Source: Amoebophrya sp. A120
Lineage: Eukaryota > Protista > Dinoflagellata
Direction of reading: 5' to 3'
NCBI GenBank assembly: GCA_905178155.1
Contig: CAJINV010000001.1
Coordinates: 12,383,832-12,447,831, forward strand
DNA: 64,000 bases
Every line of letters starts with the position of its first letter. Within the stretch, counting starts at the first letter, position 1. The notes under the pieces are model-generated. The model worked only from the letters and a program-made list of their open reading frames with translations, was not told the origin of the DNA and did not search any database. Positions 11,955 through 47,964 of the stretch are shown piece after piece. The translations under genes and the position numbers were made by a program.

Positions 11955-14900
11955 CTATTTTTCGTCAGTATTTTGGAGCCGCTCAGTAGGATTTGTGTTT
12001 GTACCAGACTTTTTCCATTTTAGTTTTTCAAGCAATACCGAAACCGAGTCATCACACATGTACCGGGAATAATTTCTCCCAAACGCTAACACCCGGCAGA
12101 TTGCCGCAAAGGCCAACAAGGCCACTAGGGAGTTCGCAATGTGATCCGTCTCCGTGACATCAATGCCGAAATTGCTCTTCAGCACCTCTTCCCCCGTTTT
12201 GTATTGGCAGTCGTCTGGGTAGAGAACAAACTCCTCGGTGGAGCATGTGTCCAGTTTTACGTCGGTCCAAGCCCAGACAATCATCGCGTTAAAACCCCAG
12301 TAGGCCAATGACAGGTATTTCACCCACCGCATCCATACGGGCAGTAAATCCAAATCCAGCATAAACCCGTTCAGCAGCAGCATCGGGAGTAGTATCATGA
12401 GTAGTATCGCAGTCGCGATGTCCGGGTCGTCGGTCTATGGATTGTAAAAATGTCTGGGTCTGGAAGAATGGAAGGTCTGTCATGCTCTGCCAGCATGACC
12501 CCAAAGTCTGTCATGCACGTTACCCAAGAGCCTCGCTTTTTTGTCATGCAGAAAAGCAGTTTGTCATGCAGACCAGGCAACACCTCGAAGCTCACAAACT
12601 TGTCATGCTGAGCCAGCACTTGTCGCCGCCTCATGATACGCCAACCAGCATCACAAGTTTCCAGACCCAGACATTTTTACACTTGATACGGTCAGAGAGG
12701 CGACGAACGCCCCGGCCGCGTTCGCCGTCAGCATGACACATTCAGAAATCAGCAAAAAGACGAAAAACTTCTCGAAGAAGAACCCGGCCGTCACGTCGTC
12801 GTCGACGCCGAAGATGCCGTGGAACTGCACGAGAAAGCACGCGGCGATCGTGAAGAGTAACGGAAACAAAGAGGAGATCGGCAACTCCCCTGTCATGCGG
12901 CCCACCGAGAACGCGCTCAGACTGTATAGCCGCTTCGTCACAATTTCGCGCCGGAGAAACCGCGCGCCCTGGACCAGCATCGTCATGGTCTCGAACGCGG
13001 CGGAAAAATTCGGGTGCACGAAGAAGAAAAACGCCGCGCCGTGTCGCGTGTTGTTCATCTTTGGGTGCGGCGGGGTGCGGAAAAAAATCCACCCGCAAAG
13101 TGCCAGCAGCGCCCCGTTCGCGTACAAGGCTAACCACGTCTCGAACCTGCGTCGCAGGCGTGCCCGGTACGTCCGCTGGTGCAAGGCTCTCACCTGGGTC
13201 CACCAAGAGGGGCGGTCTTGCTGGTTGGAAAGAACTACACGGGTTGTAGTAGTGCTAGCGGTCGCATGAACTACGTCTTGCGCGGTCGTTGCGCCAGCTG
13301 CTTGATTCAATGCCTCGTCGTGCGCCACCACGGTATCAAGATCCGGCGGAGGCAGCATCTCCGCGTACTTGGACAAAATGCGCTTACTAATTTGCTTCGG
13401 GTTTTGGTGTTCTCCCACTGGAGGTTCACCCTCCATCGGACCGCTCCTGTCGGCCGCGTTTGTCGCAACTACAGTATCCTCATCTCGTCTGACTTCCTCT
13501 GCGCTGTCCCGTAGTGCAACATTGCTCCCAGATAATTCTCTGTAGGTCAACAGCAGCTTCTCGCGTTTCTCCTCATTCTGGATTAAGTCCAGCGCGAACT
13601 CCGCCGCGTTGTAGCCTCGGGGGAATGCAAACCCCTTGTCCGAAAGCTCGTGAGCCATGGAAAGTCCCGGGCCAAAGTAGCAGCACTCTCCCTTTCCTAT
13701 GAAGTACACTTCGCGGATATTACAATGAAAAATGTCCCCACCCCCGAACTTGAAAGCCTTTGTATTGCAAACCTTTCCAAATGAAACAGTCGCTCTCTTG
13801 CATCTATCAGCATCGCAGATTTCCGATCGTGACTAGCAAAAATTTGTATTGCAAAAGATCCCAGCAAGAGCGGCGTTTGTCATGCAAGCGCGGCGAAACA
13901 CGCCTAGACTCTGCATCAGAAAGATTTGTACTCCTTTCATGCATGACAAAAAGTTTTCATTTGGAAACTTCGCATTACAAATTTTTGCAACTTTGGGGGT
14001 GGGGGCAATTTTCCTCGCGATAGCGGAAGCGGCTGTAGATAAGTGACGACGGCTGGTGGATGGTAAACAGGATGGTTGTTTTTGCATATCATTTGTAAAA
14101 ACGTCCCCACCCCAGAGTTGTGATGCAGATTTGCAATGACAGGCACGTTTGTAATGCGCATCTCCATGAGAGGCGTTTCTAGTCGTGTTTTGGGATTTGT
14201 AATGCTGTAACCAGGATGAGCAAATGCATTTGTGACGCGTTTGTCCTTGCTAGGCTGCACTACACTACGGACTGCAACTTGTGATGCGTGAGCCCCAAAA
14301 CTTCTAGGTTTGTGTTGCAAAATCCCTAGGTTGACTCTGAGATGGGGACGTTTTTACTCAGGATATTGCATTCTGAGAATTCATTGCACTACTGTGCGAA
14401 GAGCTGGCGCCCTGTTGTTCTTCCAAGCCGTCGTCGTACAAGATATCCACCACTTCCCGTGCCATCGTGCTGTCCAGTCCGGACGTTGGTTCGTCGAGCA
14501 AAAGTACGGACACCTTTTCGTGCAAAAGCTCCTCGGCGATCGAGAGCCGCTTACGCTCACCGCCGCTGAGGAACCCGATCCGGCGGTCTCTGCAGTGACT
14601 CAGGCGCAGGCGGTGCAACACAGTCGTGATCTTCTCTTGCTGCTCCGCTTTCGAGAGGCGAAACAGCCGCATTTTCGCATGGAACTCCAACTGCTCCCCC
14701 ACGGTGACCTGGTTTTCGAAAAAATCCTCTTGCTCCACGAGCGAGACCAGCTTGACCTCCTCGGAAAACGGATAGCTTGTCGCAGCAAGTTCCTTCCAGC
14801 TAGTTCCGTTGCAAAACACGGAAATCGTGCCCGAATGTTCCGGAAACTTTTCCGCATTTGGCGTCACCTGGCCGGCGAGCATACGAAGTAGCGTGGTCTT

Positions 14901-15050
14901 TCCAGACCCCGACGGTCCCATGATGGCCAACGTTTCACCTGGCCCGACTTTGCCGCACAAACCTTTCAAAATCGAAACCTTGCTCCCGGCGCCATCGCTC
15001 GTCTCCCCGAGCTCGGAGCTCGCCGTCAGGCGGAGGTTTCGGAACTCCAT
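11955..15050 (-). CDS. ABCG (White-like) half transporter interrupted by three introners; start codon uncertain (ATG at 15050, frame open to ~15134)
   Basis: GPSGSGKTT, LSGGERKRLSIA, LLLDEPTSGLDS; spliced H-loop KTTILFTIHQPSSLIYSRFREVYFIG; ABC2 membrane domain; colinear with the intronless paralogue at 19533-22295. Confidence 0.9.
12436..12688. mobile_element. Introner A2 (253 bp)
   Basis: TATGGATTGTAAAAATGTCTGGGTCTGGAA ... TTCCAGACCCAGACATTTTTACACTTGATA; direct repeat CGGTC at 12431-12435 and 12689-12693; restores ASLTDDPDIATA; interior similar to 63503-63757. Confidence 0.93.
13718..14022. mobile_element. Introner B2 (305 bp)
   Basis: TATTACAATGAAAAATGTCCCCACCCCC ... GGGGGTGGGGGCAATTTTCCTCGCGATA; direct repeat GCGGA at 13713-13717 and 14023-14027; restores YSRFREVYF; interior is a reverse-complement homologue of 46308-46613. 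Confidence 0.93.
14087..14365. mobile_element. Introner B3 (279 bp)
   Basis: TATCATTTGTAAAAACGTCCCCACCCCAGAGT ... ACTCTGAGATGGGGACGTTTTTACTCAGGATA; direct repeat TTGCA at 14082-14086 and 14366-14370; restores NSQNAKTTILFTIHQP. Confidence 0.93.
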
Positions 15051-16233
15051 GGCGCGCTCACGATTCGAGACTGAGACGTGTCTGTTGCTGCATCTTGAAT
15101 CATTAATATTGTTTGAAGAAGCTGCTCCACGCACGTGAACTCATTGATATCTCACTTTGGTGCGGCACAGCAAGGATTTCGTTTCTGACTGTCTGACGAC
15201 CTCACATCCTCCTCAGAATTGATCCACTTCTCTGGGGTAAACACTTGAAAACAACTTACTCCGAGGTTCGACTTTGATTGCGTTCCAAGTAAAAATCGCA
15301 AACTGCCTTCAGCTTGAACAGAAAAACGAAAAACCTGCTCTTGCATGCATTGCACAAGCCGTTTTCTGCTTTTTCGAACACAAAGCGGAGTGCTCAAGGG
15401 GCCACCGGGGCTTGTTCGGTGGGTATAAACGACCACGAAGAGCAGGTGTGACTGAGGACCTTACTAGCATAGAGCGATTAGATTTGAAAATTTGAATTTC
15501 TTGCTAAAAAAAGCACGGATCCTTTAGAAATAGAAACTAACTTAAAAGACAGTCCAGATAAGCAGCTCAATACTTGAAAAACATCGATCCAGACTGCGAT
15601 TTTCTTTTTCCGTCATGGACGTCTTCTAGCCGGTTCTCATCTTTTTTTCGCAGAGCCTGAGCCAGAGTCGATGCTGTCAGTTACGATTGAATTGCAATCT
15701 GTCACGAGCAATTCGTCACTCTCCTTGCGACAAACTAGCGACTGGCCAAATTCGCGAAATAAAATTTGCGAGACTAGAAGAAGAAAAAAAGGCTGCTCAG
15801 TCTTGCTTCGACATCAACATTCTTTTTCTGTTTGATGGCTATGCTAAATTTAGCTCTTGCTGAGCATCATGCTAGGCACGTACAATGTGGCACGGAAGGA
15901 CGACCCTAGCTTCGCAGGTTCTGGCTTCAACTCGACTTCGTCTACAGCCGCACAGAAGCTGCGAAAACCTAGGATACCTCCATCTCCATCCTTCACTTAT
16001 TATATCGTGCGACTAGAAATTGGTAAAAGGAAGCTCAACGAAAAAATAAACATGTAGATCCGCGTGACGACGTGATCTGGCAGCGAAAGCGGTGCGCCTC
16101 CTGCCACTGACTTTGGTGAGTCAGCAGGTGACGATTTTACCACTAGCTGCAGGGACAAACCTTCTTATTGCTTTGTGTGCTTTTTCTTGCTTTTTTCCCT
16201 CGTCGACATTGATTGAAATTACCAAATATTCTG

Positions 16234-16291
16234 ACTATCCGAGGGGGTATCATGGTGATCCGCTTAAAACCACGATACCTCCTCGGATAGT
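16234..16291. repeat. Intergenic inverted repeat (23-bp arms, 21/23 matched, 12-nt loop)
   Basis: ACTATCCGAGGGGGTATCATGGT (16234-16256) versus ACCACGATACCTCCTCGGATAGT (16269-16291). Confidence 0.8.
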
Positions 16292-16600
16292 TGTGCGTTT
16301 TTGTTTTTATGCAGAGCTGAATTGGAATGGGAGGCGTAGACATCTATAAAGCATATTGAAAAAGGATAATTCTATCTCACATCGATTTCGATACAGTCTT
16401 CCATTACACTATCACATTTTTTTTAGCAGAGTCAGCGGCTTAAATTTTCGTCTTAGATGGGGTCTTTAGCACCGGAGCATGTCCTGAACATGGAATAGAT
16501 AGGAATCTGTCAAAGCCTACCCTTGTCTTTAGCCGCGACACATTTTTTGCTTCGAAACTAAAAATGTTGGATGCAGAGATAGTACGTCTGCAACCTCGAA

Positions 16601-16630
16601 GTACCAACATCAACATGTTGATGTTGGTAC
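16601..16630. repeat. Perfect 30-bp palindrome
   Basis: GTACCAACATCAACATGTTGATGTTGGTAC equals its own reverse complement. Confidence 0.9.
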
Positions 16631-16951
16631 AATAACGAACGGAACTAGTCCGTCAACAAAAATACGTTTATGTATTTACTGCTGCGGACAATTCGTTCTG
16701 ACTGTCAAGAAGACTCGCAATCTATCAGTATCTATAAATATCACCATGTTTGCGCAAAAAACTGTTCTCCGTCCTGCTCATCTTCGTTATCGTTACCGAG
16801 CGGATAGTAAAACTCCTCACCCCATTTAGTTGCTTGGCATCGATGCCAAAAATTTCTTCATATTCTATCTTCATCTTCTCGGATCAATCTGAATTTTGTA
16901 TCCATCTATGCGCTTGCTCTTCTGCCGCACATGACTTTTGAAGTTATAGTT

Positions 16952-18415: not shown

Positions 18416-19532
18416 TCTGCTGCTGCTTCGTAAAAGTGCTGCTCGCGGTTGTAGTTCGGGTTGGTGTAAAAACAACGACGTGCCGACAAAGAAAATGGAG
18501 GCGCTTCTATATATTTTGTTGGTTTCGCTGCTGCTGTAAGAACACAGATTAATAACGTCAAAGACAAACAGCCCTAAGCTTTAGAGAGAAAGATAGTCTA
18601 CGACACCTCGTGTCCACGTTACTAGCCCTGTAATCATTGCAAATGTTTCACGTTCATGTGATCAATCAGGCTAGTCCTGTAGGCGTAGACTTTGGATCAG
18701 TGTCGTCATTTGGGATCACGGTGGTACGGGATCCCTTGATCCTGATTCAGCTGATGATCTATGCCAACAGCTGCGGCAACCTCGACGGCGTCCCTAACCG
18801 TAATGTGAAGCGATCGAGATCTTGGAAGTTGTGAGCACCACAGTCACAGATCACGTCGAGATCTTCTACCAACAAAATCTATTTGTGTTATGGTCCTCGA
18901 GATAGAGGAGAGTCTTGTCGAGGAGGAGACGTAGAGGCACTTGGCTTTTCGTGCCAGCTACGGACACGGTAGTTAGTCCACCGCATCCATCTACTTGAAT
19001 TTGTCGGACATTCCATGGCGCGTTCTTTCACGCTTTGAGATCATTAAGACGCAACTGTTGCAGCATGAACGATTTTCTTTTTTGAAGCTGCACCTATTTC
19101 AGTTCATACATCATGATCTTGGTCAAGCACTGCAAGGTCATTTTGTTCCTAAGTGTCTGACGACCTCGCATCCTCCTGCGGATTGATGTAAGTACTTGCT
19201 TCTCCGGAGTACACAGTTGGAAGCAACGAGATCAGACTTTCGCGTCCAAAGAAAGAGTCGCAGACGGAGTTCTTCATGTGAGTCCGCAATAATTGCACCA
19301 ATGTGGCAGCGCCCTGGTCCGCAAAACAGAGGGAGCAATGGTTGCAAAAAAATGAACTACTTCGAATGCGGTCGTGCAGTCGTGGAGATACTCGAATGAA
19401 AAAATGCAATCAGATTCATCCATGTGATTTGTATGTTGCGCGACAGGACTTCACTTTCCTAAAACTCAAACTGAAAGCGACAGAAATCACTTTGGGTCTC
19501 CCATAACTCAAGCTTTCGCTTCCTCTTCTACT

Positions 19533-22295
19533 TCACGGGGCGGACCCCCACCTGAAGATCTTCACGAGTGCTTCCAAGGAGGAACGGCGTCCTTTTGCAG
19601 GTACTGCCGGCGTTGTAGTGTTTTCCGCGAGCGGATCGCTCAAGTGTAGGGCCATCAACCAGTTGTCGGCATATTCGTAGCGCACGTAAAAGCGGAAAAA
19701 GGCGAGTAGCCGGGTGATGACAGTGAGCAGCAACAAACACAGCAGGGCGTTTCGCTTCAAGTGCGGATTGTCGGCGACCGTGATACCGAATCTGTGGTGC
19801 AAGACCAGGTCGCCGGACCGGTACAGACTGCAGTTCTTCGGAAACTCCAGCTGCTCTTGTGCAGAGCAGGACTCCATCTCGAGCCCCTCCCACGTCCAGC
19901 TCCCGAACGCCAGGAAGCCGTAATAGAACTGGCTGCAGTGCCGCACCCACGCGATGCTGACCGGGATCAGACTCGCATCCAAAATGAAGGGGTTCAGAAG
20001 AAAGAGCGGCACGAGGACGACGATTCCCAAACTAATCGCGACTTCTACGTCCTGAGTGAGAGATCCAATGAAGTACCCCAGCGACTGCCCCGCGAGCTGG
20101 CAGATCAGCGAGATTCCGAGAAGTTCCAAATTCAGCACGACCTCCGGGTGGAACTGCATCAGCGACCAAGCGCCAATCGTGTAGATGAGCGGAAAGATCA
20201 TGATGATCGGCAATTCACCGGTCGTGCGCGCCGCGAAAAAAGACGAGAGTCGGTAGAGCCTCTTCGTTTGGAACTCGCGTTGCAGCACCATTCCGGACAT
20301 GACCAGTGGGAGCATGGCCTCGAACGTTGCGGAAAACAGAGGGTGTGTCAGGATGAAAAACATGGCGCCGTTCCTCGTGTCTACCTTACTCGGATGCTTA
20401 CCCACATCGAAGAAGAAGATCCCGATCAAAATGGTCACAAACGTGTTCTGGATAATAGCGAGTTTCGTCGCGTACCTCTGGCGGAGGCGCGCGATCAAGG
20501 TTCGCTTCCAGATCTCCGAAAACTCGACCCACCAGGGAGCCCGTTTCCGGCTCGCCAACAGATTTGCGACGGAATTCCGGCTCTTCGACGAGCGTGCGGA
20601 GCTTTTCGCCTTCTTGTGTCTCCCCTTAATCGATACGTGCGCTTGCTTAGTTTCCTCGTCCGACACCGGCGTTCGTCCTTGCAGTTCCTCCATCTCGCCT
20701 GGACTTCGGGCCCCGCTGCTACGAGACGGTGTGTACCGGTCCGCGTCTGACCCGCTTTCCCTTTCGTCATCGCGGTCCGCCGAGATATGCTCTGCGTCGT
20801 GCTGCTCGTCATTAGTTGTACCATTCGATTTCGTGATGCTGGTGATGCTGCGTAGAATCTGCAGTTTCTTCTTCTCGTCCACTTGCTGTTGTTTCTGCAC
20901 CAGTCGTGCAAGTTTTTCGGTGTCTTGTATCGTGTCCAAGGCGAACTCCGCAGCGCTGTAGAAGGGTGGGGAATGAAATCCCGCACGGGACAGCCAGCTC
21001 CCCAGCTGATCGGCGGGGCCGAAGTAGGCGCATTCCCCCTGCCCAAGAAAGTACACACTCGAGAAGCAGGAGTAGAGGAGGCTGGAGGGTTGGTGAATCG
21101 TGAAGATGATCGTCGTGTCACGCACTTCGCGCATAGCATCGTCCTGTTCCTGTTCGGGGGTAGAGTCGTGCTTTAGAGCTCTCCCGCTGGTAGTACCGCC
21201 CTCCGTAGTTGTGTGATCGTGAGCATGATCCTGATCTTCAGCATTTGCTTGGTCGAGCAGTGCGGGAGGTACAACAGCAGCTCCAGGCGACGACATCGCC
21301 TCCGTACCCGATGGTACGGGGGAGTGTAAAGCTCCAAGATCAGCAAAATTTCTACTGCCCTTTGCTGCACCACCGGAGGAGCCGCCACTAACGTCGTCTC
21401 TCGGGGGGCCAGGGCTGGCCTCGACGTGCGTTGCAGCTACCAGCGCGCCGGTCAGGCCACCGCTTGCCGCGGCAACTGAAAGTTCTACGGCGCTGTTGAC
21501 TGTTGACTTGGATTCCTTGCTAGTAGACCTGCCTGCTGCAAGGCTCGGAAGCAGCCGTGGTATTATCGTGCCGCTGGCACCTGCGGTGGATGCTGAAACC
21601 CGGTTTTGATCGTCGCTCGCAAGGTTGACCACGTCGGCGGGCGCCGCACTGTTGTTGCACAAGATGTCGACCATTTCCTTCGCTGACACTGAATCCAAGC
21701 CGGTCGTCGGCTCGTCAAGCAATAAAACGGACGTCTGCTCATTTAGCAATTCCTCGGCAACCGACAGGCGTTTTTGTTCTCCGCCGGACAGCAAATACAC
21801 CTTTCTGTGCTGGCAATGCGACAAGCGCAACCGTCGCAAAATCGCGGCGATCCTGTCCTGCCGCTGCTTCCTCGGAAGGTGAAACAACCGCAGCGCCGCG
21901 TAGAAGCTCAGGTGCTCGGACACGGTGACCTCACCGATGAAGAGATCTTGCTGCTCGATCAAGGAAACCAACTTCACGCCCTCCGAGAAGGGGTAGTTTT
22001 GCAAGCTAACGCTCTCCTCGTTATTCAAGCTCACACTTCCACTGATGGTCGCGCGGCCGTGCAACGCACCGCTGCCCGGGCGGCCGCCGCTGCCTCCGCT
22101 GGCGGACACGGTGGTGCGGATCTGGCCTGCTAGCGCTTTCAGCAAAGAGGATTTGCCAGACCCGCTGGGGCCGAGGATGGCGAGGGTGCCGCCACCTTCC
22201 ACGCGTCCAGACATGTTGCGCAGGATGTCGGTCTGCGTCCCCGTCTCCGGATCTCGTGCGGAAAACACCACCTCGCGCCACTCCAGAGAGGCCAT
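19533..22295 (-). CDS. ABCG (White-like) half transporter, intronless paralogue (920 aa)
   Basis: GPSGSGKSS, LSGGEQKRLSVA, LLLDEPTTGLDS, FTIHQPSS, C-terminal membrane domain. Confidence 0.92.
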   Translation of the reverse strand: MASLEWREVVFSARDPETGTQTDILRNMSGRVEGGGTLAILGPSGSGKSSLLKALAGQIRTTVSASGGSGGRPGSGALHGRATISGSVSLNNEESVSLQNYPFSEGVKLVSLIEQQDLFIGEVTVSEHLSFYAALRLFHLPRKQRQDRIAAILRRLRLSHCQHRKVYLLSGGEQKRLSVAEELLNEQTSVLLLDEPTTGLDSVSAKEMVDILCNNSAAPADVVNLASDDQNRVSASTAGASGTIIPRLLPSLAAGRSTSKESKSTVNSAVELSVAAASGGLTGALVAATHVEASPGPPRDDVSGGSSGGAAKGSRNFADLGALHSPVPSGTEAMSSPGAAVVPPALLDQANAEDQDHAHDHTTTEGGTTSGRALKHDSTPEQEQDDAMREVRDTTIIFTIHQPSSLLYSCFSSVYFLGQGECAYFGPADQLGSWLSRAGFHSPPFYSAAEFALDTIQDTEKLARLVQKQQQVDEKKKLQILRSITSITKSNGTTNDEQHDAEHISADRDDERESGSDADRYTPSRSSGARSPGEMEELQGRTPVSDEETKQAHVSIKGRHKKAKSSARSSKSRNSVANLLASRKRAPWWVEFSEIWKRTLIARLRQRYATKLAIIQNTFVTILIGIFFFDVGKHPSKVDTRNGAMFFILTHPLFSATFEAMLPLVMSGMVLQREFQTKRLYRLSSFFAARTTGELPIIMIFPLIYTIGAWSLMQFHPEVVLNLELLGISLICQLAGQSLGYFIGSLTQDVEVAISLGIVVLVPLFLLNPFILDASLIPVSIAWVRHCSQFYYGFLAFGSWTWEGLEMESCSAQEQLEFPKNCSLYRSGDLVLHHRFGITVADNPHLKRNALLCLLLLTVITRLLAFFRFYVRYEYADNWLMALHLSDPLAENTTTPAVPAKGRRSSLEALVKIFRWGSAP

Positions 22296-22747
22296 GGTCG
22301 CTCCCCGCGTGTGGAGTGGGTGTTGCAGGAGAGGGCAGCGCGCGGGATGTTTGGAAGATGTAGCTGTGGCTGGTAGCGGTGCTCAAGCACCATGTGTTGC
22401 TTGGTTACGGCTTACGCTGATCTCAGTCGCTCTGCTCTCTAGATTGATCATGCACTGAAACGGGCACAGCAACCGGGATCAAGAAAAGCCAGATCCGAAT
22501 CTTGTATCTGTAGGTTGATCTTTTTTTGATCTTGCTGCTGTGATCGTGCTCAGAATTCTGCGTTACAGTGCGTGGGGCTTGTGATCGAAAAGAAAAAAAA
22601 GGCCACCATGAATTGTGAAAATCTGAACAACACGAGCGAAAGTGACATGGTGAAACTCTGAACAACAGCTACCTAGCATCCGTTCAAAAAGTAATTATAA
22701 AGCAGAGTCTTGGCGTAGTCGATTGCTTTATTTGTTGCGTACTTCTT

Positions 22748-32103: not shown

Positions 32104-32335
32104 GCACGGAGTTATCTGCTATATGCGCCAGCAGCTGCTTCTTGAGGTTGAGTGGCAATCTATTTTTTCATCGTGGGTCTGAAGTTTTTAATTTTGATTC
32201 TCGCATGGAGCGGTCGCGAGAAATACACAACCTCGCTCAAATAATGTAAGTAGTGACGCACTCCTTCATTCTGGAAAGAATTACGGCGAGAGCGAGATAC
32301 TGAAGCACTATACAACTCAGGCACAAACGGGCTTT

Positions 32336-35300
32336 TCATGGCATAGCCGTGTCCACGCGGCTCGGCTCATCCTTGTCCCCTGCACTGGAAAATCCCACCT
32401 GCTCCGGGGCCGCAACGTCGACCAAATCCGGATCTTCAGCTAGGAGATCAGACACAACTTCACGAATGTCTCGGTTGGTTAACTTGTGCGCCCGAGCACT
32501 TTTCTCGACGTCCTTCGTTCGCATGCTCAGCGTTCCGTGCCCCTTCATCGCCGCGGCATCCAGAATTTTTTGTGCTCTAGCCCGATCGCCCGTCCGCCAC
32601 GAGGCCAGCGGAACCGCTCCCAGTGACTGCTCTGCCCGCAACAGCTCGCCCAGGCGCCTTGGCGACAAATTTCCCTTAATCATGTCCAGAACAACGCGGG
32701 TCAAGCAAGCTAGTCCGATTGAGCGCGGATGCGCAGGACCGAATTTCTCGACGACGTTGAACCACCGCGCAGTGACTTTCCCCGTTATGCCGCTGGACGT
32801 CTGCAACCCACCACCGTGTTGCGTATACCGTCGAAACACAGCAAGCATGACGTCCTCAAGCAGATTGTCGTCGTCAAGTTCCCCAACGGTGCGCGCCAAG
32901 TTCTCTTCTATCCCGAAGTCTTCGTCGAGCGTGCTGTTGCTACCAAGCAATGGGGCCCTGTTTTTGGAACTCGTCGCGCCACTACTGGAGGAGGACGCGG
33001 TAGAGCCAACCTGCTGCGCAAGCGCGCCGGGCTTTTTTTCTTCTTCCCCCGCGTCAGCCGCGTCGCCTTTTCTGGTGCTGTCCGTCAGAAAGTCTTCGAT
33101 CTGCTTCACACGTCCAGCCCAGTAATCGTCCCCGAGGTTCCAGCAGCGGATCTGGCTCCTGCCGTTCTTGCCCAAGAGAGTCAGGAGGTCGGTATTCCAG
33201 CAGACCCAGTTCAGGTCGCCATCGTAGTCGCCTCCGCGGAATTCATCCGCGCCCCCGCGCTCACAGTTGTCCGGGTGCGCCGCAAGGATCAGCAAGCTTA
33301 TCAAGTGCAAATATGTCTGGGCCCGGATCTGGAGGAAGGTTGCATGATCATTTGTCAAGATAAATCTTTTTTGATTTTGCATGCAAAAATTTGCATGAAA
33401 ACATTTGTCAAGATAAATATACCGCCCGGGCTTCGCATAGCCTAACGGGCCTGCCATGCGCGCTCGAGCACCGCAAGTGATGGCTCCGCGTCCGCAAATG
33501 CAAGTCCTATCCTGCATGACACACGTTGCCTCGGGACGCCACAAAGTGCGTGGCTTTTGCTGCTCACAAATTACAGACTTCTGGGACTTTTGTGTCTCCC
33601 AGACCGAACACGCAAAACACTTCCTCCAGGCCCAGACATATTTGCGTCTGATATGGTTTTTACCCGTGCCAAACCGACGCGCAAGCTCCTCCTTGTAGAC
33701 AAAGCGGACCAGCTGCAGGTCCGTGGGCAACACCGCCGGCGTCGCTCCCACGACGCACCAGCCGCGGAGGTACTTATCTTGTCCGTCCTTGTCGCGAAAA
33801 ACGAGCTGGGCCTGTCTCCTCTTTAGAAGTCTACCGGTGTAGTCGTAGGCGACGTGGAAGAAACCGCTGTCCTTCATTTTGTACTGCGGCTTTTTCCGCA
33901 GCCTCTCCGCCTCCTGGAGCTGACTCTTTGCCTCTACTGTCCACAAATGAATCTGCGACGTCTCTTCAAATCCGGCATCTTTCAACCGACTCAGGAACTC
34001 GTGCTGCCCGCGCTGCGCATCCCCCGCCGGAAAGGGGTTTCGGTCGCCCGCTGCCTTGGCCTGCGCCGCCTTTGCCTTGCGCCTCTCCTCGTGCACGGCC
34101 TTTCTTTCCTTCTGCAAAGCCCGGGCGTACCGTGCGTCATCCGCCCCCGCGTCGTGGAACTGCAGTGGCCGGGCCCCGGGTTTGACATCTTTGTCCCGGT
34201 TTCGTTCGGCCGCCGATCCAGGCTTCGGATCATCGTGCTCGTGCCCTCCGTCTTCTTCGCCGCTCCGCAAGGCTGCATCCACGCTTTCTGCTGGGGCCGC
34301 TGCATCTCCGTCTCGATCTGCAGAGGAGGACTCGGACGATGCCTCGCTGGAAGCAGAGCCTGAATCCGATGAAGTTTCCGTTTCTGTGTCGCTTTGTTCG
34401 GCAGAGGAGCTTGCTAGCATATCTTCCGGATCGTCCTCGTTTGTGTCTCTTTGCTCCTTTGCTCCAGTGCCTGCGCCGTGAGCGCTGGAGCTGCTGGCCG
34501 TCGCACCATCCGGATGCTGAGCGCCCTGATTGTAGTTGCAGTTGTACTTGTAGCAGTTAATTGGCACGAAGCATCAGTTTTCCGCTAGACAGTGACAGAG
34601 ACCACGATCTTGAAGTATACTACCTGTATCTACCTACTTAAAACAATGAGTAAACAACGATGTCGACACTTTGGCTTTTTGTTTTTTGTAGATCGATGCA
34701 AAAATGAAAAAACTTTGTATCTCTACCTGTTTCCGCAGAGCCACCGGAGAAGAGTCCAGGGACAGACCGGGGTCGTGAAGCTGCAGCGTGTCTTCCTTCT
34801 TCCGCTTCTTCGGGTTTTCCGCTGGAGCATCGAGAGTCGTCGCGGCCTTCTTGCTTTGATTGCCGATCTTCTTCTCCAGGTCTACGAAGTGGAACTTTTC
34901 CTCCCAATGGCTGTCGTGCAGCCCCTCCAAAAACTGCAAGAACGCCTCCCGCTTTGCGTGGTTCACAACAAACTCGCCCGCCTGCGCCTCATCTGCAGAT
35001 GCCTGGAAAAGCTGCACTGCGTCGCCCGCCACAACTGCAGACCTTTCCCCCTTCTCCGGCGTCTGTGGCTCCGGGGTTTCGCCGCTTTTCTTTTTGGCGG
35101 GGCCCGCGCTCTTCTGCTGCTTTTTTGCCCTTGTCTTCCGCTCCTTTTTGGAAAGCCTTCGCTTCCCCCACATTGCCTTCTTGCTGTCTTTCTGCGTGCG
35201 CGGACCGGTGTCGACGTCTTTCTTCGGCAAAGTCTCCCTCCATTCCCAGGCACAGAGAAACTCGAGAAGTGGCAGGAACTGCGCATTGAGCGTTCGATCC

Positions 35301-38300
35301 CAGCTCTGGCGGTCGGTTCTAACAATCCCCTGCGGACAGACCTCGAGCGTCAGCTGCGATTTCTCCAGCCTGCTTTCGTCGCGCGACCCCTTGCACATCG
35401 AAGAGCGAAAAAGGATGCTGGGCGCCGAGTCGTTGTCTGGTATGGCAGTATCCAAGAATAGCATTCCTTTTTGCACCCCTGTCCGAATTTGGATGGCCGT
35501 CAGCCAGCTCCCGGGCTCGAAATATATGCCGCAGGTGCTCTCGAGGTGTGCCTGGACGCGGGCCATCTGGCCGATCGAAATGCGCCCGCCACCGTCGGAA
35601 AGAATTTGACCTGTTGCAAGTGGAGGCGCCATAGTGAATTGCTATTGGCATGACGACAATGCTGCATTGATATGGCTTACCACAGATCACAAATTAGAAA
35701 GCATGGCCGAAAGGAAATGTCTTGTAATGCAAAGGCCACAAATGAAATCTAAGAAGCTGACTCCCATCCAACTCGTCGCGTGCCGCTCACTATGCATTTG
35801 TTTCTAACCAAAAAGAAGAAAAGTCTGCTAATCTACCAATACCTGTCTTCTTCGCCCGAATGTCGTCTTCGATTGTCCGCTGGGAGGCCGGAACGACGGC
35901 AGTGCGGAATGTTCGAGATGACAACAGCTGAAAGCGCGCCACGAACTTCCCCGGCTTTAGACCGCGAACGTCGGCCGATGACATGGGCATATGCCAGGTC
36001 CGGAGTTTCGTCGCAACTGTACTAGGTTCCTCCCCGCTGAAATACTCGACGAAGATCAGCTTTTTGTTGGCGTCGAACTCGTGGTGGGGGCACAGAAAAA
36101 CGAAGGTCCGGGGACCGCTCCGCAGCTTGCCGCGAGCGTCCTCGCTGGCCGTCGTGGTGAGCAGCTTCACTGTTCGCGGGAACTCGTCGATCCGCCTTGT
36201 GCGCCGAAGCATCGCTTTTACCGCCACACCCCCCGCGGTCGCTCCCTCTTCCTCGTCGGCAGCTCCGCCGTCCCCTGCTCCACCCCCCTCCGCCGCCTCG
36301 CTTGCGCCGGGCTCCGCGTCCTTCTTTGGTCGTATCCGTTGGAAAAACGTCCCCAACCCATTGCGATTCTTCTTCTTATCAGGCAACAGAACTCGGCTTG
36401 TTTTTAGTCTTACGAATACAAACTCAGGCTTAACTTTTCATTCTCAATCGATGGAAGTAAAAGTAGTTCACACGAGCTGACACACGACTCGGCGTCACAT
36501 TTCGCGGCGCTTCAGCGAGCGCTTCTGCGAGGCAGCACTGCCCTGGCCTTCAGTTCGCTTTCCAGCGGCATTTCCCCCAAAACCAGGGGGAATATTTAAA
36601 TTTTAACTCGCCCGCAGGGCGAAAACATGGCGTTTTTGAAAATTTTGCGATAGTTCCCCACCCTCTGGGGCTGTAGAATTTGGCTTTAAACGAGCCGAAA
36701 CCGAGCTCGCGGGCGGCCGCTCACGGCCTCGACTCTCATGTCAGCTCGAGCTTCTGCATCCTTCAGCAAAGGGGCGATGGTGCGCAATAGCATTGCAGCT
36801 GCCAGCAAGTGGCGGGCCTTCGCCCTGCGAGAGCCTCCTCTGAAGCATTTTCACTCTTCTGAGCATTTTTTTCTCTTTCCTTGGGCGGTATCTCCCGCCC
36901 ATTTCTTTTCGCCGAATGTGCGGGCGTGGGAGCTCTGCCCCACGGCTACTTCTAAGCACTTTGCGATGAGAAAACTTCCCACATGACGGATTTTCCGCCG
37001 GCAGCATCTACTTTGATGTGATGTTGCGGCAGGGCAGGGCTCTGGCCAAGATCCTTCCGTCCGAATGCGACTGTGTGTCATGCGCAGCTCTATACTGACG
37101 AGCGCCTTCATTCTAAAAAATGGAGCTTGCAAGCTTGCAAGCAAGTTGTCATGGGGTGGGGGCGTTTTTCCACTGGATAGGTCGGCCCCGCTTTTTCGGA
37201 ACCGCGCGGCCCGGTGGCTTCTTGTTCTTCTGTACCTGGGGGCTCTCTCCGCGGCCTGCGGCCCGCACGTGCTTGGCGCCGCCGTTTTCATCGTAGTATT
37301 CCGGATTTGGCTCCCATACGTATGGCGGCACCCGCACGGTGATCGGCTGCCGTCCCTCCTCCTGGCACTTTTCAAGTAGCCGGGTCCCGAGCGTTGACGG
37401 CCCGCCGCCTCTGCCGCTTCGGTTGTGCCCGTAGTCCAAGACAGAGCCGGCGTATGGAAGGAAAATCTGTGAGCGCGTTTGCTCCTTGAAATTTTGCTTT
37501 TCTCGATGAACGAAAGCGAATCTGAAATCAAAATGAGACAAGCTTAACAAGCCGGCCTTGGTAAGCGCCCACTTTCTTTCAAGAACTACGGCAATGCATG
37601 TACAAACAAAATTATGAAAGTCGTCTTGTTGTTACCCCGACAAAAAAGCGCGACGCGCTTGTTGGACTAGTAATTCTAATTTCAGCAACACAAATAAACT
37701 CCTCCACGTAACAGGCCAAAACGACACTCCCAATGCAAAACGCGCATGAAATAGAGATAGGACTCGCAAGCACTTCCGGCATGACAGTAAAAGTCCTTTC
37801 TTTGCGTAGTCGTTGCAGCTACGTGCACAGTCCACGGTAGCAGGAGCACTCACAGATTGACAGTGCTAATTTGGTTCACGGTACATAACACCACAAAGAT
37901 TTCACCAAGCACTTGCTTTTCCACTATCGGTCTTGGCCGCGATTGCTTCCACTCTGGCCCCTTGCCCGCGTTCTTGCCGTCCCCCCGCGGCCTCTGCTCC
38001 TCTTGTTGGTCGGTCTGTGTCTCCTGCGCCGCGTCTTTGCTGTTGTTCTTCTGCCTCTTTGCCTCGGCTCGGGCTCGTGCGCGCTCGTCTGCCTGTGCGA
38101 GGTCCGGCAACAAGTCCGCCAGCGGGGTGATGTCCGAAGACGCCGATGACTGCTGCGGGGGCATTGAGGACGAAGAGGACTGCGCCCATCCTCTTTGTTG
38201 GCGCGGGTCCGCCCGTGCGTACGCACTCCCCTCCATGGCAACCGGGTCGAACAGCCGGCCAGTGTCGACGTGCGTCGGCACGCAGCGGCGGTCGCCGAAC

Positions 38301-42500: not shown

Positions 42501-44782
42501 TAGTTGCACAGATGCCGCGCTAGCTCGTCGCTGTGTTCGTCGATGAGACGGTGCGTTGGGCTGTTCCCAACTACATTATTTGCACCCGCGGTACTCCCAC
42601 TGGCGCATTGGTCGCCGAACGGCTGGTATTTTTTCGTGCAGAAGCGACAGAGCGCTTCACGGCCAACAAAGATCTTGAAGTTCTTGCCGAACCCCGACAT
42701 CACCACGTACACACGCATGTCGAACTTGTAGCCGTTGAGCAGGAGCGGGTTGTCCAAATATTCTTGCAACACCAGGTTGCTACGACTGACGCTCCGCACC
42801 TGCAAATCCCGCATGCGGGAGAGCAGAAAGATCCCCTGTCCCTGCGACGAATCTTCGGGCTTGCAAATCAAAGTTTTCGTCGGGTTATCCTCTAAAAACT
42901 TCTCCACCAAGGGGCGGTCTTCGGGGTAGACCCAGGTTTTCGGGATGTGCTCGTGCAACACGAACGGCCGGCGCAAATAGTTGGTCGCCTGCTCTGTCGG
43001 CGTACTGATATTCGCATGGAAGTTGTCGCGGGTTAAGTTCGCAAACAACTTGTTCAGGGGATTCGTGTTCTGCTGGCTGTATTGGCCCGGCCGAGTTGGG
43101 AAATTCGAGTTCGTCAAAAGAACGGGGGTTTTGTTTCTCGCAAGCATTGCACTAGAAGACAGGTTGTCGTCGAACGTGATTTTCTGAGTCGAGTCATCCC
43201 CAGCTTCTGGATCAACACGAGCGAAATCTTTTGTCTGGGTCAGAATTTCGCCCTCCTCTACTGCTGCGCCTACTTGACGAGGCAAGCGGTTTCGCTTTGG
43301 CGAGACCAGGGCCGCACACGTCCGCGACATGAGATTCGTGCCACTTGGTCCGGACTGCGCTCCTGCCGCAGTTTCATTTTGGTATAGCCTTTTCTTCACC
43401 TCGCGATTAACGGGTGACAGTGTGGCTGCGGCGTTTACTTCCGTTACAGAAGAAGTTTTCCCCGAAGTAGACGTAGCCACATCGACATCCGTAGGACTGG
43501 GGTTCAAACTCGGTAATGGGGGCAGCCGCACCTTGTTCTGCTTCGCCGCTTTTTGTTCCGGATTGTTCCGCACGATCCCGAACGCCGCGTCGAGTTGCAT
43601 CGCTGCAGAGCTCGTCAGATGGCTGGGTTGCTCCAGCAAGCTGCTCTCTGACGGTTCCTGAAAAGACGTGATCGACTTCAGTAAACCGACGGCTTTCTGG
43701 ACCTTGTTCTTTTTCTTCTTGCCCTTGCGCTTTTTCTTCTTCTTGAAGTTGCTTGCGGTCCCGCCCATCATCTTCACCTCGTCCTCGTAAAACGTCGTTT
43801 GCATATTAGCACTTGTGGTGGCATCAAGAGGGCTCCTCGTTGACCATCCGGGCGCTTCCTGATTGTCCTCCTCCGATTCGTCGTTCTGTTCCTGATCGAG
43901 GTCTTCTCCAATAGGATTCTGATTATCCCCGCTCAGAACATCAGCGTTGTCATCGTTGTAGAATGCTGCAAAAGGTGCAGCGCTTGCGTCGACGTCCGGG
44001 GAAGCTTGCTGTACATGATCCGCGTCGTGGTCTTCGTCGCCCGACAAAAGATCAGGATCCTCATCCTCATCCCCAATACCGTCTGCAGCTTCATTCGTAG
44101 TTTCACCGTCGACTGCGACTCCGCCTGGTCGCCCTGCCACAGCCGCCTCTAGAGTGCCACTCGTCGTGTTTCCTATTCTCTTGCTCTTCAGCGCCGACGG
44201 ACCCCGGGGCGCGGGCTCCAAGGCGAGCAGCTGATCGCCCAGACGCCGGAAATACCGGGCCATATTCACCTTTGCACACATCTCGGCCATGCCCGGGTAG
44301 CGCGTGATCCAGCAACCGCCGCCAGCTTCCTCGAGCACCGGGAGAAACTCGGATTGCTGCAGGATGAAGCACACACGATTGATGCCATTGTTGGTCCTAT
44401 TCCCGTTCTTGTTCCTCCGCCGGGACGGCGAGCTGTCCGGCGAAAGCGAGCGGTCGTCTTGTGGAGTATTATCGTGGTCTACTGGAGTGGAAGCGGTTGA
44501 AATTAGGCCGCTCGGAGGAAAAGTTGGCGTCAGTGTGTCGACGAAGCCCCATTTCACCGTTGACAGGAGAGGAGCAGCGGGATGCTCCTGCAGCTGTCGG
44601 TGTTGAGTTCTGCTTTTTCTATTCCTTTTCAAGGCGGTCTCGTTGGTTCGCGTTTCTTCAAGCGCAACTGCTCTCCGGATAAGGTCCTGCCACTTGCCGG
44701 GGCGTGGACTCAGCCACACAGACCACTTCTCTTCTTCGCCGGTAGGCAAGTAAGGGGCCGCGGGATAAGGGGCTTGCGCCAT
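39533..44782 (-). CDS. Tubulin-tyrosine ligase-like (TTLL) protein, probable polyglutamylase, 1749 aa, intronless
   Basis: IPKTWVYP, ICKPEDSSQGQGIFL, LQEYLDNPLLLNGYKFDMRVYVV, HLCNYSIQK, LLGFDLMLD, LLEVNSGPSL. Confidence 0.92.
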   Translation of the reverse strand: MAQAPYPAAPYLPTGEEEKWSVWLSPRPGKWQDLIRRAVALEETRTNETALKRNRKSRTQHRQLQEHPAAPLLSTVKWGFVDTLTPTFPPSGLISTASTPVDHDNTPQDDRSLSPDSSPSRRRNKNGNRTNNGINRVCFILQQSEFLPVLEEAGGGCWITRYPGMAEMCAKVNMARYFRRLGDQLLALEPAPRGPSALKSKRIGNTTSGTLEAAVAGRPGGVAVDGETTNEAADGIGDEDEDPDLLSGDEDHDADHVQQASPDVDASAAPFAAFYNDDNADVLSGDNQNPIGEDLDQEQNDESEEDNQEAPGWSTRSPLDATTSANMQTTFYEDEVKMMGGTASNFKKKKKRKGKKKKNKVQKAVGLLKSITSFQEPSESSLLEQPSHLTSSAAMQLDAAFGIVRNNPEQKAAKQNKVRLPPLPSLNPSPTDVDVATSTSGKTSSVTEVNAAATLSPVNREVKKRLYQNETAAGAQSGPSGTNLMSRTCAALVSPKRNRLPRQVGAAVEEGEILTQTKDFARVDPEAGDDSTQKITFDDNLSSSAMLARNKTPVLLTNSNFPTRPGQYSQQNTNPLNKLFANLTRDNFHANISTPTEQATNYLRRPFVLHEHIPKTWVYPEDRPLVEKFLEDNPTKTLICKPEDSSQGQGIFLLSRMRDLQVRSVSRSNLVLQEYLDNPLLLNGYKFDMRVYVVMSGFGKNFKIFVGREALCRFCTKKYQPFGDQCASGSTAGANNVVGNSPTHRLIDEHSDELARHLCNYSIQKKCDGYVRAGEQPQQPVGVVPASPTAVATENVDTDAAQGMAEANDGTSDATPAEVDEIKQGRTHLTTVRTTDVQISGADVREKDAGEHQVGHAAVEPPNDATVPDETPGTKSNSAAESEDPSEISRDNIIKRTNNARTPFTDHFPEAPEGSTTEDDKVNTASFYTLTDDDPDRYDPHEIMEEINSFPANAPQIHDLHAPVDRPPSRNAFAANPGARNRTTTIAMQDFAKKQRDERERLRQRAETVAGAAASTAANGVGVNQLGIAVRSPKDKWNAKFGNMNRSQDNELEVQQLRTNNFKSTFSPPSTLGAAAGGNTTSALSCNLSVGTASPSQGATSDQPHKWTRTASGNIVARSSEARQNGSFEKQASSTLADRKFVRKHGTTSSLFSSPSGGTNNSSSNSSSPTQVGVFCLDDLNNNTGNARQSKWKASETITAGNGMMGGSPGGGATASGSSPNSLHGKNRSQHMKPDYSGWLREVEALEKQCTKQLARNGRAEIVGAGSKHSGIYSGAELQQQRGGIHLFAPERASSNGVCSSTSEEEVQIDDGTGEVAVVHTDKKFSAGLEEEDDDLIATPCSPVVQKPKVVDVDVKNHQRKNLCGTSAAPTSDRNCKVPPATSGAKKLDTSGAPAAAGSDPGATMSFEALSSDPLASKRLLSVVLSQIEQEFPDTFNREKFYEQLSDICGQWAEAVHPYLLATYRPFSCDKNAKHRSFYEKNEARCAQLLGFDLMLDADMKMHLLEVNSGPSLNMDDVIPVEYSELPNGEPDYRCFCGEHPLPHRHVPSPIDRFVKTNVMSGLFQVIRSTEQSLQQHGKVDSRRGVSTSTAETQLHSTNVMSKINSHGRNNSSYLTNHRPELFRKEPFIEIERDYRFRSLLRKFEMWFSCKVNNTYEGMSQSASYQTSSFQLRRAFAKLKSLDTSDLDLEYTKMKREFVQPYVKSPWLHARFEILDLVPVLQAIKAKKRFRSVERLLECLLGGNSGRGK

Positions 44783-45758
44783 CTTCGTTCAAGGCAGACA
44801 CACGAAAAAGTAGATGGCAAAAGGAAATAATAAAACCACCGAACGTTGGCTGCGGAGGATAAACTTCTAGAGATGTTCCGCCTATTCGGCACAGGCAGGA
44901 GGTTGCCGTTCCAAACTTTCCCTCAGGATAAAATTAGAGATTCGCATGGCCATCTATGTATGTTTCGAGGGTAGTAGAAGCATCATCATGCCGCGACACT
45001 GCAGAGCCGTCTTCAAAAAAAGTTGTCGGAAACGAAAACTGCACTCGGCCGTTTGAAAATGATTCAGAAAAAAAAGGAAGGAAACTCGAGGACTATTGTA
45101 CTGCACTTGTTCAACAACCTGGACCTGCATAAATACCATCATTCAAAACGGCAGCAAATTGAGATGCATTTCTTCGGCAAAGACGAGAAGAAACGAACTC
45201 GAAGTATAGAAATAATGGGCACGATGGAAGAACGTCACGCAGGAACGATGGATGTGATGGGTGTTGTAACGGAAGAACGATCAAACCGGAAAGTATGAAC
45301 GACAGAAAAACTACGAAGATGCGGTGGCATTCAGAACGACGACGAGCCACAGGCATGTCACTGAAAACCAAGTCGCTGTTTTGATACGAGAAATAACTCC
45401 ATGCTGGTGCAATGCGGTCATTTACTATCTATTCGCGCAGATCGGGTCAAAAATTCAATAGTCTATCTCTGCAGTTCAGCAGTTTAATCGTGTTGCTCGT
45501 GCGGCAACTCCAGCACATGAATCAATGTGGTGTTGACATTGCTATGTGTAAATGGGAATCTTCTAAACAATTTGCGCTCCTCCGCAACATGCGCAGTCAA
45601 TACTTTCATTTTTATTTTGTTTTTGATTCTCCTACTAAACAGGCACTGATGTTTCGAAACTTCGAGAACTTCTAGCACGATTGCTTAGAGATAAAGACAC
45701 TAAAATGAGGAAAAACTGAAATTCGAAATTACCTAAAGGCTGCTGATGACACCACCCC

Positions 45759-47964
45759 TCACAGGTACCCCTCTCGCAGCCAGCGGTGCTTGCAGTGGTT
45801 GCGCATGATGGAAAGCAGCGTGTGCCGCTTCGTGGAGTCGACGACCTGAAACGCGAGCAGCGTACTGGGTGACGACCGGACACTTTGGAGCTTCCTGGAT
45901 ATTACCGAGTCGAAGATCTGGCCGCGCAAGCGACGCTGGCGCGTTAGATCCTTCTCGTCCTCCTCCCCGCTGCCGTCGTTGCAAAGCAGTGCCACGTATG
46001 CACTGCAAATATGATGTCTAGGTCTGGAAGAGTGTCTCTTGCAGGTTTTCCATGACCCTTGAGGTCCGGAATGCGGGACCTAGCATGACAGAGTCTGTGA
46101 GGTCTCTGCCATGCCTATGCTGCATGAGAAACTCCCTCCCAGCTTGGTCGAAAGTGGACAGCTTGTGGCACTCATGCAACACAGAGTTTTGCATGATTCG
46201 GATTTAGCATGACAAGTTGCAATCTTCCAGACCCAGACACTTTTGCAATCCATACCACGCGCACCTCGAAAAAGCAGGGGTTGTCCGGTGCCGGCGGCCG
46301 TGCTGGATATTACAGTGAAAAGTGCCCCCCACCCCTCAAATTGCAAAAATTTGTGATGCGGAGTTTCCAAATGAAAACTTTTTGTCATGCATGAAACGAG
46401 TATGAATCTTTCTGATGCGGAGTCTAGGCGTGTATCGCATCGCTTGCATGACAAGCGCCGCTCTTGCTGGGGTCTTTTGCAATACAAATTTTCGCTATTC
46501 ACGGTTGGAAACCTGTGATGCTGATAGGTGCAAGAGGGCGAATGTTTCATTTGGAAAGGTTTGCAATACAAATGCTTTCAAGTTCGGGGGTGGGGGGATT
46601 TTTCCTTTTGATACTGGATTGGCGTTGTTGCGAGGACTTCTCCCAGTAGCTGTGGTGGACGAAGAATTTGTACTACTTCTCAACTTCGCCCTCTCTTTTT
46701 CCGGCACCCGCACGTCGCAGGAGAGCAGAATTGCATTTCCAACCAAATCGATTGTCGACACGTAATTTCCAAACCGGACCTTCTCCTCCAGTAAGGGCTC
46801 CAGCACAGGCTGGTTTGCACTTTTTTGATCTGCAGAACTGCTCGTTGCTGCTTCCTGTTGAGACGATGAATCTCCGAGATCTAGCTCCACAGTGTACTCT
46901 TCCTCTGTGTCCAAGGTTTTGCACGCGGTTTCATAGAGCTCCCGCAGCGTGCTGCCACAAGCCGCCCAAGGCCCACTGCGCGGATCCAGCGACGCGACAC
47001 TGTTGCCTTCGGAAAGGGAAGCGAGAAAGCTAGCGAATTTCGACACTCGCACCGCTGTGATTGTCGGTTTCGTGGTACAACTACCGGAGCATGCGCTTTT
47101 ACTCGAAATCTCTTGCTGCGGGGGTGAAAGGCGCTGCTTATTTGAAAATCCAGCGAGATGTGACGCAGTGTGTAGTCCTGGCTCACCCTCGCACAGGCTG
47201 CTCGCTTTCTTCAAGCGACCAGACTGCAACCCGTCCTTGTCAGCAACGGTAGGCCCCGCAGAATCAGCATCGTCGACCACGGGGTCGTGTGCCAAGCTGA
47301 AGATCTCTGAGTGAGCATTGTTCGTGAGCAGGACGTAGGCCGGTCGGTGCTCCTTAAACTCTGTCTCGATGAATTCGTCGTAACCATTGCGTAATGGTAA
47401 GTGTTCCACATCATCTAGATCTTCTTCAGCCCCCTCTTCTCGCGGACTCGCCCCATCTTCAGGGTTTGTGCAAAAGGAAGTGGATGCGGACAAGGATCCT
47501 CGGCTGCTGGGCGCCGTGGTTGGCGATAGCGCGCAGTCCGCGAGCTTGCACTGCTCGTCGTGGAGGATGGTCCCGCACGGAAGCATGAATCGCAGGTCCG
47601 TGCCACGCACGTGCAAGTCCTGTCGCAACTCGCCCAACGTGGCGTCCGGCCGCGCCCTGCAGAGAAGTGTTCCTCCCGGAGACACGATGGGGACTGCATC
47701 TACTTCGTAGTTGAGGTGAAACTTATGCTGATCATCCCCGTCGGAGGCCTGATGGAGATCCGGGACATCGTCCAGGGGCTTCGGAATCTCGCGAGCAGTG
47801 CCGGCCCTGCTGGAGGAGGGCTCCCCCTGCGGCACAGTTGCACGGGCGGACAATAGCGCAATGCGGACGGACTCCACGGTTGTCGCGCTTGTAGAGATAA
47901 GGACGAAGAGTTTGAAAACCTTCCGCGCAAGGTAACCGGCATGCTGTTGCCGCAACGCCGCCAT
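45759..47964 (-). CDS. Hypothetical protein with two introners flanking a micro-exon
   Basis: ORF 46495-47964 joins a short exon and ORF 45759-45995 in frame after removing both elements: NANPARPPAPDNPCFFEVRVALLCNDG. Confidence 0.75.
45997..46254. mobile_element. Introner A4 (258 bp)
   Basis: TATGCACTGCAAATATGATGTCTAGGTCTGGAAG ... CTTCCAGACCCAGACACTTTTGCAATCCATA; direct repeat CCACG at 45992-45996 and 46255-46259; interior similar to 57490-57751. Confidence 0.92.
46308..46613. mobile_element. Introner B5 (306 bp)
   Basis: TATTACAGTGAAAAGTGCCCCCCACCCC ... GGGGGTGGGGGGATTTTTCCTTTTGATA; direct repeat CTGGA at 46303-46307 and 46614-46618. Confidence 0.93.

Follow-up and report, generated by a model that had tools for sequence, protein, structure and literature searches.

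In Amoebophrya sp. A120, introners have been described whose inverted repeats consist of TAT, seven less-conserved bases and at least three As, and which carry direct repeats of 3–5 nt, form a hairpin, have a mean length of ~240 nt and contain no internal transposase (Farhat et al. 2021, PMC7789003). A role of the hairpin in introner removal was proposed by the same authors, and a related family of A120 introners has been described as containing integrase-like frames as well as inverted repeats (PMC12130899). The introner-like elements of Polarella glacialis and Symbiodinium are transposon-derived and flanked by duplications of 3–8 nt (bioRxiv 10.1101/2020.10.14.339549); the comparisons made here draw on portions of these sources, and the literature compared also includes portions of PMC9860276. 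Here, we analyze two elements, called B2 and B5, within a 64,000-nt stretch of the A120 genome (contig CAJINV010000001.1, positions 12,383,832 to 12,447,831 of the forward strand; hereafter the window). An earlier note on this DNA had proposed that their core flips while one outer end remains fixed to the direction of the gene, where it would supply a branch point. We consider instead that B2 and B5 are probably two opposite-orientation copies of one TAT...ATA element, in which TATTACARTG is a typical family end on both core sides, and that one-sided end changes combined with opposite insertion give the coincidence observed at the intron 3′ ends.

B2 (13718–14022, minus strand, 305 bp) and B5 (46308–46613, minus strand, 306 bp) belong to the same family in reversed orientation, the reverse complement of B5 being 89.6% identical to B2 across 297 nt. 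Both are bounded by imperfect inverted repeats, with a TAT start and an ATA end, and each is flanked by an exact 5-bp direct repeat, namely the target-site duplications GCGGA (13713–13717 and 14023–14027) for B2 and CTGGA (46303–46307 and 46614–46618) for B5. The sequence TATTACARTGAAAARTG is matched just twice in the window; these positions, 13718 and 46308, are the left ends of the two elements, while the right ends, read inward, are TATCGCGAGGAAAATTG in B2 and TATCAAAAGGAAAAATC in B5. Since both hosts are minus-strand frames, TATTACA is located at the intron 3′ end in both cases. Relative to the core, however, the two ends are on opposite sides: B2 has its core-left (core-L) end TATTACAATG at the intron 3′ end and its core-right (core-R) end TATCGCGAGG at the 5′ end, whereas B5 has its core-R end TATTACAGTG at the 3′ end and its core-L end TATCAAAAGG at the 5′ end. 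In all these respects (coordinates, lengths, reverse-complement interiors, common left-end variant and position of TATTACA) the earlier description was exact.

When compared to the known systems, B2 and B5 resemble the A120 introners by their TAT ends, A-tract, direct repeats, hairpin, repeated family and non-canonical removal, a match made by description (PMC7789003); judged from their sequences, they likely fit this already known A120 type and are likely transposon-derived. The window elements differ by a duplication of 5 bp located entirely outside TAT...ATA, and, in the portion of that paper compared here, the seven bases are only said to be “less conserved”, with no analysis of core side, gene direction or insertion orientation (PMC7789003). 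As in our elements, several Polarella and Symbiodinium classes form introns either way; however, those use GT/GC/GA and AG sites provided by the element or the duplication, whereas a GT-AG cut could be made in just 15 of our 348 oriented elements, and their classes 6, 8 and 10 favour one orientation, whereas no overall preference is found here (bioRxiv 10.1101/2020.10.14.339549). IS3EU/GingerRoot transposons also share TA..TA termini and terminal inverted repeats with our elements, but their duplications are usually 6 bp instead of 5 bp (PMC10045372). No transposase was found, with the 108–231-codon open frames of seven elements longer than 450 bp left unscanned against families, and therefore the superfamily cannot be assigned. 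In the literature searched, no title concerned end exchange or orientation in Amoebophrya introners, although subscription papers and supplements may cover them; the fast-changing spacer and the orientation-blind removal described below are modest additions to the known type.

The sample of elements was obtained with a two-ended search pattern, which had 4 window matches vs none in 100 shuffles and gave 103 stretches in a metagenome collection. These loci and a scan of the window provided 417 candidates, reduced to 406 after removal of 10 with poor duplications and one overlapping call, i.e., 13 elements in the window and 393 in the metagenome-collection loci, among which 11 families had at least 8 members and the window elements had locus relatives with up to 98% core identity. 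Note that the search pattern demanded TATC at one end, so that copies with TATT at both ends are under-sampled in the targeted families. In viral contigs, this pattern had one match, which was an unrelated sequence on inspection, and the A-family pattern had none. L001 and L033, which are the same match, were excluded from every count. The copies L016:3558-4061 and L041:5712-6230, with flanks 98% alike and two elements in common, represent a gene duplicate or an allele; the two copies in the duplicated gene were excluded from the permutation tests onward, and one such pair remains in the per-family end counts and in the comparison of near-identical copies. TAT was present in 347/347 oriented elements (as the detector required) and A at positions 11–13 in 317–335 of 347. 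The duplication was exact over 5 bp in 339 of the 406 elements and over 6 bp in one, with a detector favouring 5 bp; it was likewise 5 bp in the window elements that were found by end similarity alone. Mismatches between duplication copies were rarest at the middle base over all oriented elements (18, 15, 4, 10 and 12 at positions 1–5), and this minimum may bear on the cut position.

The B2/B5 family has 14 members, with core identities of up to 98%. When these are oriented by core, TATTACAATG is the core-L end in 7 of the 14 copies and TATCACAGTG the core-R end in 7, and TATTACARTG occurs 9 times at core-L and 3 times at core-R. The same ends are found at either side of the intron: TATTACAATG occupies the 5′ side in L066, L083 and L101 but the 3′ side in L037, L053, L075 and B2. 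Over its 17 nt, the B5 end TATTACAGTG shows no difference from the core-R end of L032_4001, which is 5′ in its intron, and a single difference from the core-R ends of L017_4001 and L090_301. Concerning the opposite ends, TATCGCGAGG of B2 also occurs on the same core side in L075_4001, the TATCAAAAGGAAAAATC end of B5 is three bases from its sibling ends, and the B5 core-L end matches, at positions 4–10, TATCAAAAGG, which with 11 ends is more frequent than any other end in the B1-type families. In L045_7068, the member furthest from the rest, TATTACARTG is present on both sides. Among loose ends in the contigs of run X1, the core-L end was TATTACAAT in at least 27 contigs, and the core-R end was TATTACAATG in at least 9 and TATCGCGAGG in at least 8. 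End variants are tied to core side in this family (permutation p=0.0065), and TATTACARTG lies on opposite core sides in 26 of the 91 family pairs; therefore, the B2/B5 pattern is not above chance for the family. From these sequences, the pair would need no flip, as the family end motif exists on both sides and each copy has lost it at the other end, although one old swap is a less likely alternative.

Extending the comparison to all families, end variants (positions 4–10) were found associated with core side (permutation p=0.0002, 354 family elements) and not with the 5′ or 3′ side of the intron (p=0.99 for 306 strand-called elements; p=0.96 for the 267 with their own strand call), which does not support a flipped core whose outer end is fixed to gene direction. 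The core-side signal was absent from two A families (p=0.18 and 0.80). Among the 348 oriented elements, TATTACARTG marks the 5′ end alone in 6, the 3′ end alone in 5 and both in 1, and without the window copies in 6, 3 and 1 of 335, respectively; being at the 5′ end about as often as at the 3′ end, it is ruled out as a fixed branch point. Two further cases had been pointed out in the window and were found as described, i.e., a TATGCA..GCAAATATG end located at the transcriptional 3′ end of both A1 and A4 on opposite sides of homologous cores, and the counter-example of TATGGATT, at the 3′ end of A2 but the 5′ end of A4. In the whole sample, the former was 5′-only in 7, 3′-only in 13 and at both ends in 1 (p=0.26), the latter 5′-only in 7, 3′-only in 8 and at both in 1, and TATCCTGAGT 5′-only in 20, 3′-only in 15 and at both in 5. 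Moreover, TGTAAT, which had been suggested as the branch point, occurs in the last 20 nt of 6 of the 348 introns and of 7 antisense controls, and the same stretch contains YTRAY in 80 vs 93 and CTRAY in 13 vs 8 (sense vs antisense). Cores are sense to the gene in 148 cases and antisense in 158 (p=0.61). The elements thus lie in genes both ways, without a branch-like strand signal.

The safest reading had been considered to be that the ends are decoupled from the core, and this stands only in part. In its favour, the turnover of positions 4–10 is roughly double that of the nearby core and the A families lack a core-side signal, but close relatives mostly keep their sides: in 80 nearest-neighbour pairs (≥90%), which share members and are not independent, the ends are closer when collinear in 41, closer when swapped in 10 and tied in 29, with 9 exact collinear matches and a single exact reciprocal one that concerns one base. 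Since seven end bases hold too little signal for end trees, changes of end labels were counted on the core trees instead, without shuffles; they were fewer by core side in two families (51/51 vs 55/60 and 33/25 vs 33/33) and about equal in the A families.

Between nearest relatives, positions 4–10 differ 1.7–2.2 times as often as the unselected core positions 31–45 (0.129 vs 0.073, 0.241 vs 0.109 and 0.299 vs 0.174), and positions 11–14 are almost unchanging. When a change involves at least 3 bases, the less frequent variant is also seen elsewhere in 31 of 52 cases, vs 16.4 expected, and the same variants are encountered in families with different inner repeats (e.g., GCATTGC, 21 times in A and 18 times in the 150-bp family). 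In addition, four ends including that of B5 look foreign to their family, vs 1.2 expected (p=0.035). We prefer to read these results as short-tract conversion through the A-tract; the alternative is relaxed constraint, compared with a constrained core, together with selection for a few workable variants. The two ends of one element match above family shuffles at positions 9–10, 13–14 and most of 16–31 (z up to 7.4), an excess that partly comes from subfamily structure, and show no excess at positions 4–8 (z −1.1 to 1.7). The predicted end-to-end hairpins have z values of −6.2 for B2 and −5.5 for B5.

Selection for mismatched ends was also considered and is not supported, as identical ends occur in 8/105, 5/64, 3/61 and 2/38 elements and positions 4–8 match at the shuffled rate. 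As a separate observation, the cores of several families (e.g., window 13760–13990) contain a recurring short motif, TTTGTNATGC, which some end variants resemble and which is a possible protein-binding repeat. In the 150-bp family (e.g., L002:7-156), AGTGC is present in the last 30 nt in 23 sense vs 3 antisense cases (p=9e-5), and G-U pairs exceed A-C pairs at repeat positions 21 (23 vs 5) and 22 (9 vs 0). This post hoc feature is the sole strand-linked one to pass Bonferroni correction (241 tests) and is not general, and it may reflect RNA pairing.

Removal of the elements was observed in assembled contigs that are likely RNA. Contig 13 of X3 is composed of 11937–12430, 12689–13712, 59 unplaced letters and 14366–15140, and thus lacks B2 together with its two neighbours A2 (12436–12688, minus strand, 253 bp, duplication CGGTC) and B3 (14087–14365, minus strand, 279 bp), one repeat copy being lost each time (258 nt for A2; 310 + 284 nt for B2 and B3). 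For B5, a joint 46302>46614 that skips 311 nt (306 + 5) is present in contigs of X3, X4 and X5, and this joint was not in run X1, which consists of the window organism's own contigs. Removal is therefore demonstrated for four copies (A2, B2, B3 and B5), whereas the raw RNA runs X9 and X10 (2026), with 0 and 3 reads on 4000–16000, are too thin to judge it. No GT-AG register is possible at B2 or B5: both are removed from likely RNA contigs without canonical splice sites, one duplication copy included. The host frames are open only after taking out the element and one duplication copy. The host gene of A2, B2 and B3 (11958–15140, minus strand) is an ABC transporter with a 777-codon frame once the three elements are out and with Pfam matches above cut-off (ABC_tran PF00005, E 2.6e-28; ABC2_membrane PF01061, E 6e-15). 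The host gene of A4 and B5 (45762–47988, minus strand) has a 551-codon frame once both elements are out, and no Pfam match was found in the 458 codons scanned.

Altogether, these elements may be understood as follows. The elements, most likely non-autonomous, would likely have been inserted in either orientation by a cut-and-paste transposase whose cut is staggered by 5 bases. B2 would have kept TATTACARTG on one core side and B5 on the other; the other end of B2 would have changed to TATCGCGAGG, common to a relative on the same side, and that of B5 to TATCAAAAGG, probably copied from a B1-type element. With the two copies inserted in opposite directions into two minus-strand genes, it would then be a coincidence that the TATTACA ends still present are both 3′ in their introns. 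Between the fixed TAT and the A-tract, positions 4–8 would form a loosely paired spacer, whose turnover likely results from relaxed constraint and occasional short-tract conversion from other ends. As both ends are built as TAT, spacer and A-tract, the transcript offers the same hairpin in either orientation, and the paired ends probably fold into a hairpin guiding the removal of the element with one repeat copy. A practical consequence of the fast-changing spacer is that grouping introners by identical end motifs splits real families. Moreover, clean removal in both orientations, combined with 348 copies without a branch-like signal, narrows the splicing question of Farhat et al. to symmetric-structure models, for which the parts can now be named: TAT, the A-tract stem, a free spacer at positions 4–8 and the 5-bp duplication.

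Several observations weigh against this interpretation. The bases at position 4 (core-L/core-R) are T/C in 9 copies, C/T in 4 and T/T in 1, with no C/C copy (Fisher p=0.005), a test in which the rows are related and the TATC search bias accounts for the scarce T/T but not for the missing C/C; such a pattern is the expected footprint of one reciprocal swap of the outermost bases in the B5 lineage. Resolution of the core tree is poor, with 2 of its 11 branches starred, and the ancestral end state is consequently not fixed. X3–X5 represent a single sample whose RNA status is a guess, 79 of the 80 metagenome stretches listed come from one assembly, and the loci may belong to another strain or species (non-element GC of 0.498 vs 0.530). 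Gene strands were called by a codon model trained on window frames, with a within-locus agreement of 309/320. Support for conversion is modest; shared ancestry could account for two of the four foreign ends. The number of changes at the L end correlates weakly with that at the R end (rho 0.27, p=0.016 for the closest bin). TATGCA-type ends are 3′-only in 37 and 5′-only in 24 of the 348 elements (p=0.12). Concerning the hairpin, G-U pairs in the stem exceed A-C pairs by 184 vs 149 (p=0.06) and by only 136 vs 123 without one family, with 857 vs 799 in the core control (p=0.16), and a general G-U over A-C bias, which would be a sign of RNA-level pairing, is not shown in the sampled elements.

A broader version of the preferred reading may be put forward tentatively, and we consider it rather unlikely as a whole: the outer ten bases would be an exchangeable module copied among ends, copies and families through the shared A-tract, the introns would be mosaics of cores and ends, and RNA removal would recognize the symmetric TAT...ATA hairpin with the 5-bp duplication and nothing else, being structure-guided and blind to both orientation and branch sequence, in a type of organism reported to lack U1 snRNA.

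It is unlikely that the pattern goes back to one old, true inversion, in which an ancestral core would have flipped between its inverted repeats with a crossover at about positions 5–7, swapping TATT and TATC, and the swapped form would have spread by transposition, unrelated to gene direction. The position-4 distribution would be explained in this way, as B5, L017_4001, L032_4001 and L079_1824 have C at core-L and T at core-R, the mirror of the 9 commonest copies; furthermore, TATCACAATG (core-L of L079) and TATTACAGTG (core-R of B5 and L032) are exactly the two crossover products, and a tree in which the four C/T copies form a clade passes the AU test (p=0.23). However, two single-base changes, or loss from an ancestor with TATTAC at both ends, give the same result, and L045_7068 indeed has TATTAC at both ends, with TATTACAATG present on core-R in at least 9 X1 contigs. 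The best tree separates L079 from the other three copies, and the only exact reciprocal swap, of a single base, stands against 9 exact collinear matches among the 80 close pairs.

We regard as quite improbable a replacement of the core, whereby a locus would keep its outer ends after excision and the gap would be refilled from the core of another copy in either orientation, by analogy with P-element replacement in Drosophila. The doubled turnover of positions 4–10 with its recurring large changes, the variants common to families with different inner repeats, the A families without core-side signal and the weak L/R correlation would all agree with it. Such a process nevertheless predicts joint changes at both ends, whereas changes of at least 3 bases affect both ends in 2 of the 80 pairs and one end in 30 (association p=0.50). 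It should also erase any side bias, which the 150-bp family retains (CCTGTGC 6 vs 29 and GAACTGC 16 vs 5), and near-identical copies keep both of their ends. Finally, a TATTACA end anchored on the 3′ side of the intron by TGTAAT acting as branch point, with the core flipping beneath it, appears highly improbable, because, although it fits both window copies and TATGCA-type ends show a mild, non-significant 3′ excess, the counts of TATTACARTG outside the window, of TGTAAT and of the other branch-like motifs, as well as the side test, all speak against it; this idea can be dropped, and lariat work on TGTAAT would target the wrong motif.

The window contains 13 such elements, all starting with TAT and ending with ATA, of which 12 have an exact 5-bp repeat. 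On the plus strand, B1 (4354–4681, 328 bp, duplication CTCAA) is the introner whose family has as its commonest end the TATCAAAAGG also carried by B5, and A1 (5580–5842, 263 bp) has the duplication CTTCC. The other introners not yet located are on the minus strand: A4 (45997–46254, 258 bp, duplication CCACG), B6 (51899–52177, 279 bp), A6 (62691–62948, 258 bp, duplication TCACC) and A7 (63503–63757, 255 bp, duplication TCGCG), together with the 262-bp element A5 (57490–57751, minus strand, duplication GGTTC), whose host strand is less securely called than any other in the window. B3 belongs to another family than B2, with 105 members in the sample, and is 78% identical to the reverse complement of B6, with which it shares TATCCTGAGT on the opposite core side. 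This pair was considered as a second flip and rejected, since, on each core side, TATCCTGAGT outnumbers every other end (27 and 26 of 105), and it lies on opposite sides in 674 of 5460 pairs.

Two elements of the window are larger. A3 (33299–33653, minus strand, 355 bp) has a degenerate duplication (2/5 match), and its removal with 5 nt gives an open frame on each side (915 and 960 nt); elements of this sort could pin down the precise point of splicing. B4 (36333–37179, minus strand, 847 bp, duplication GGTCG) has the same termini and a longest open frame of 108 codons, and is one of several longer elements (834–1384 bp) with these termini, the others being L004:632-1465, L030:4394-5438, L037:477-1860 and L077:1634-2827.

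Around the ABC transporter gene, the segment 10900–11950, located between convergent genes and without X3 contig cover, is AT-rich (GC of 0.29 in 11001–12000). A 949-codon minus-strand frame at 19536–22382 resembles the 11958–15140 frame (13587–13635 vs 20934–20982), and this gene appears related to the ABC transporter gene without these introns. A 100-bp repeat of a different kind (15157–15255 and 19119–19227, 72% identical) adjoins the starts of two minus-strand frames.

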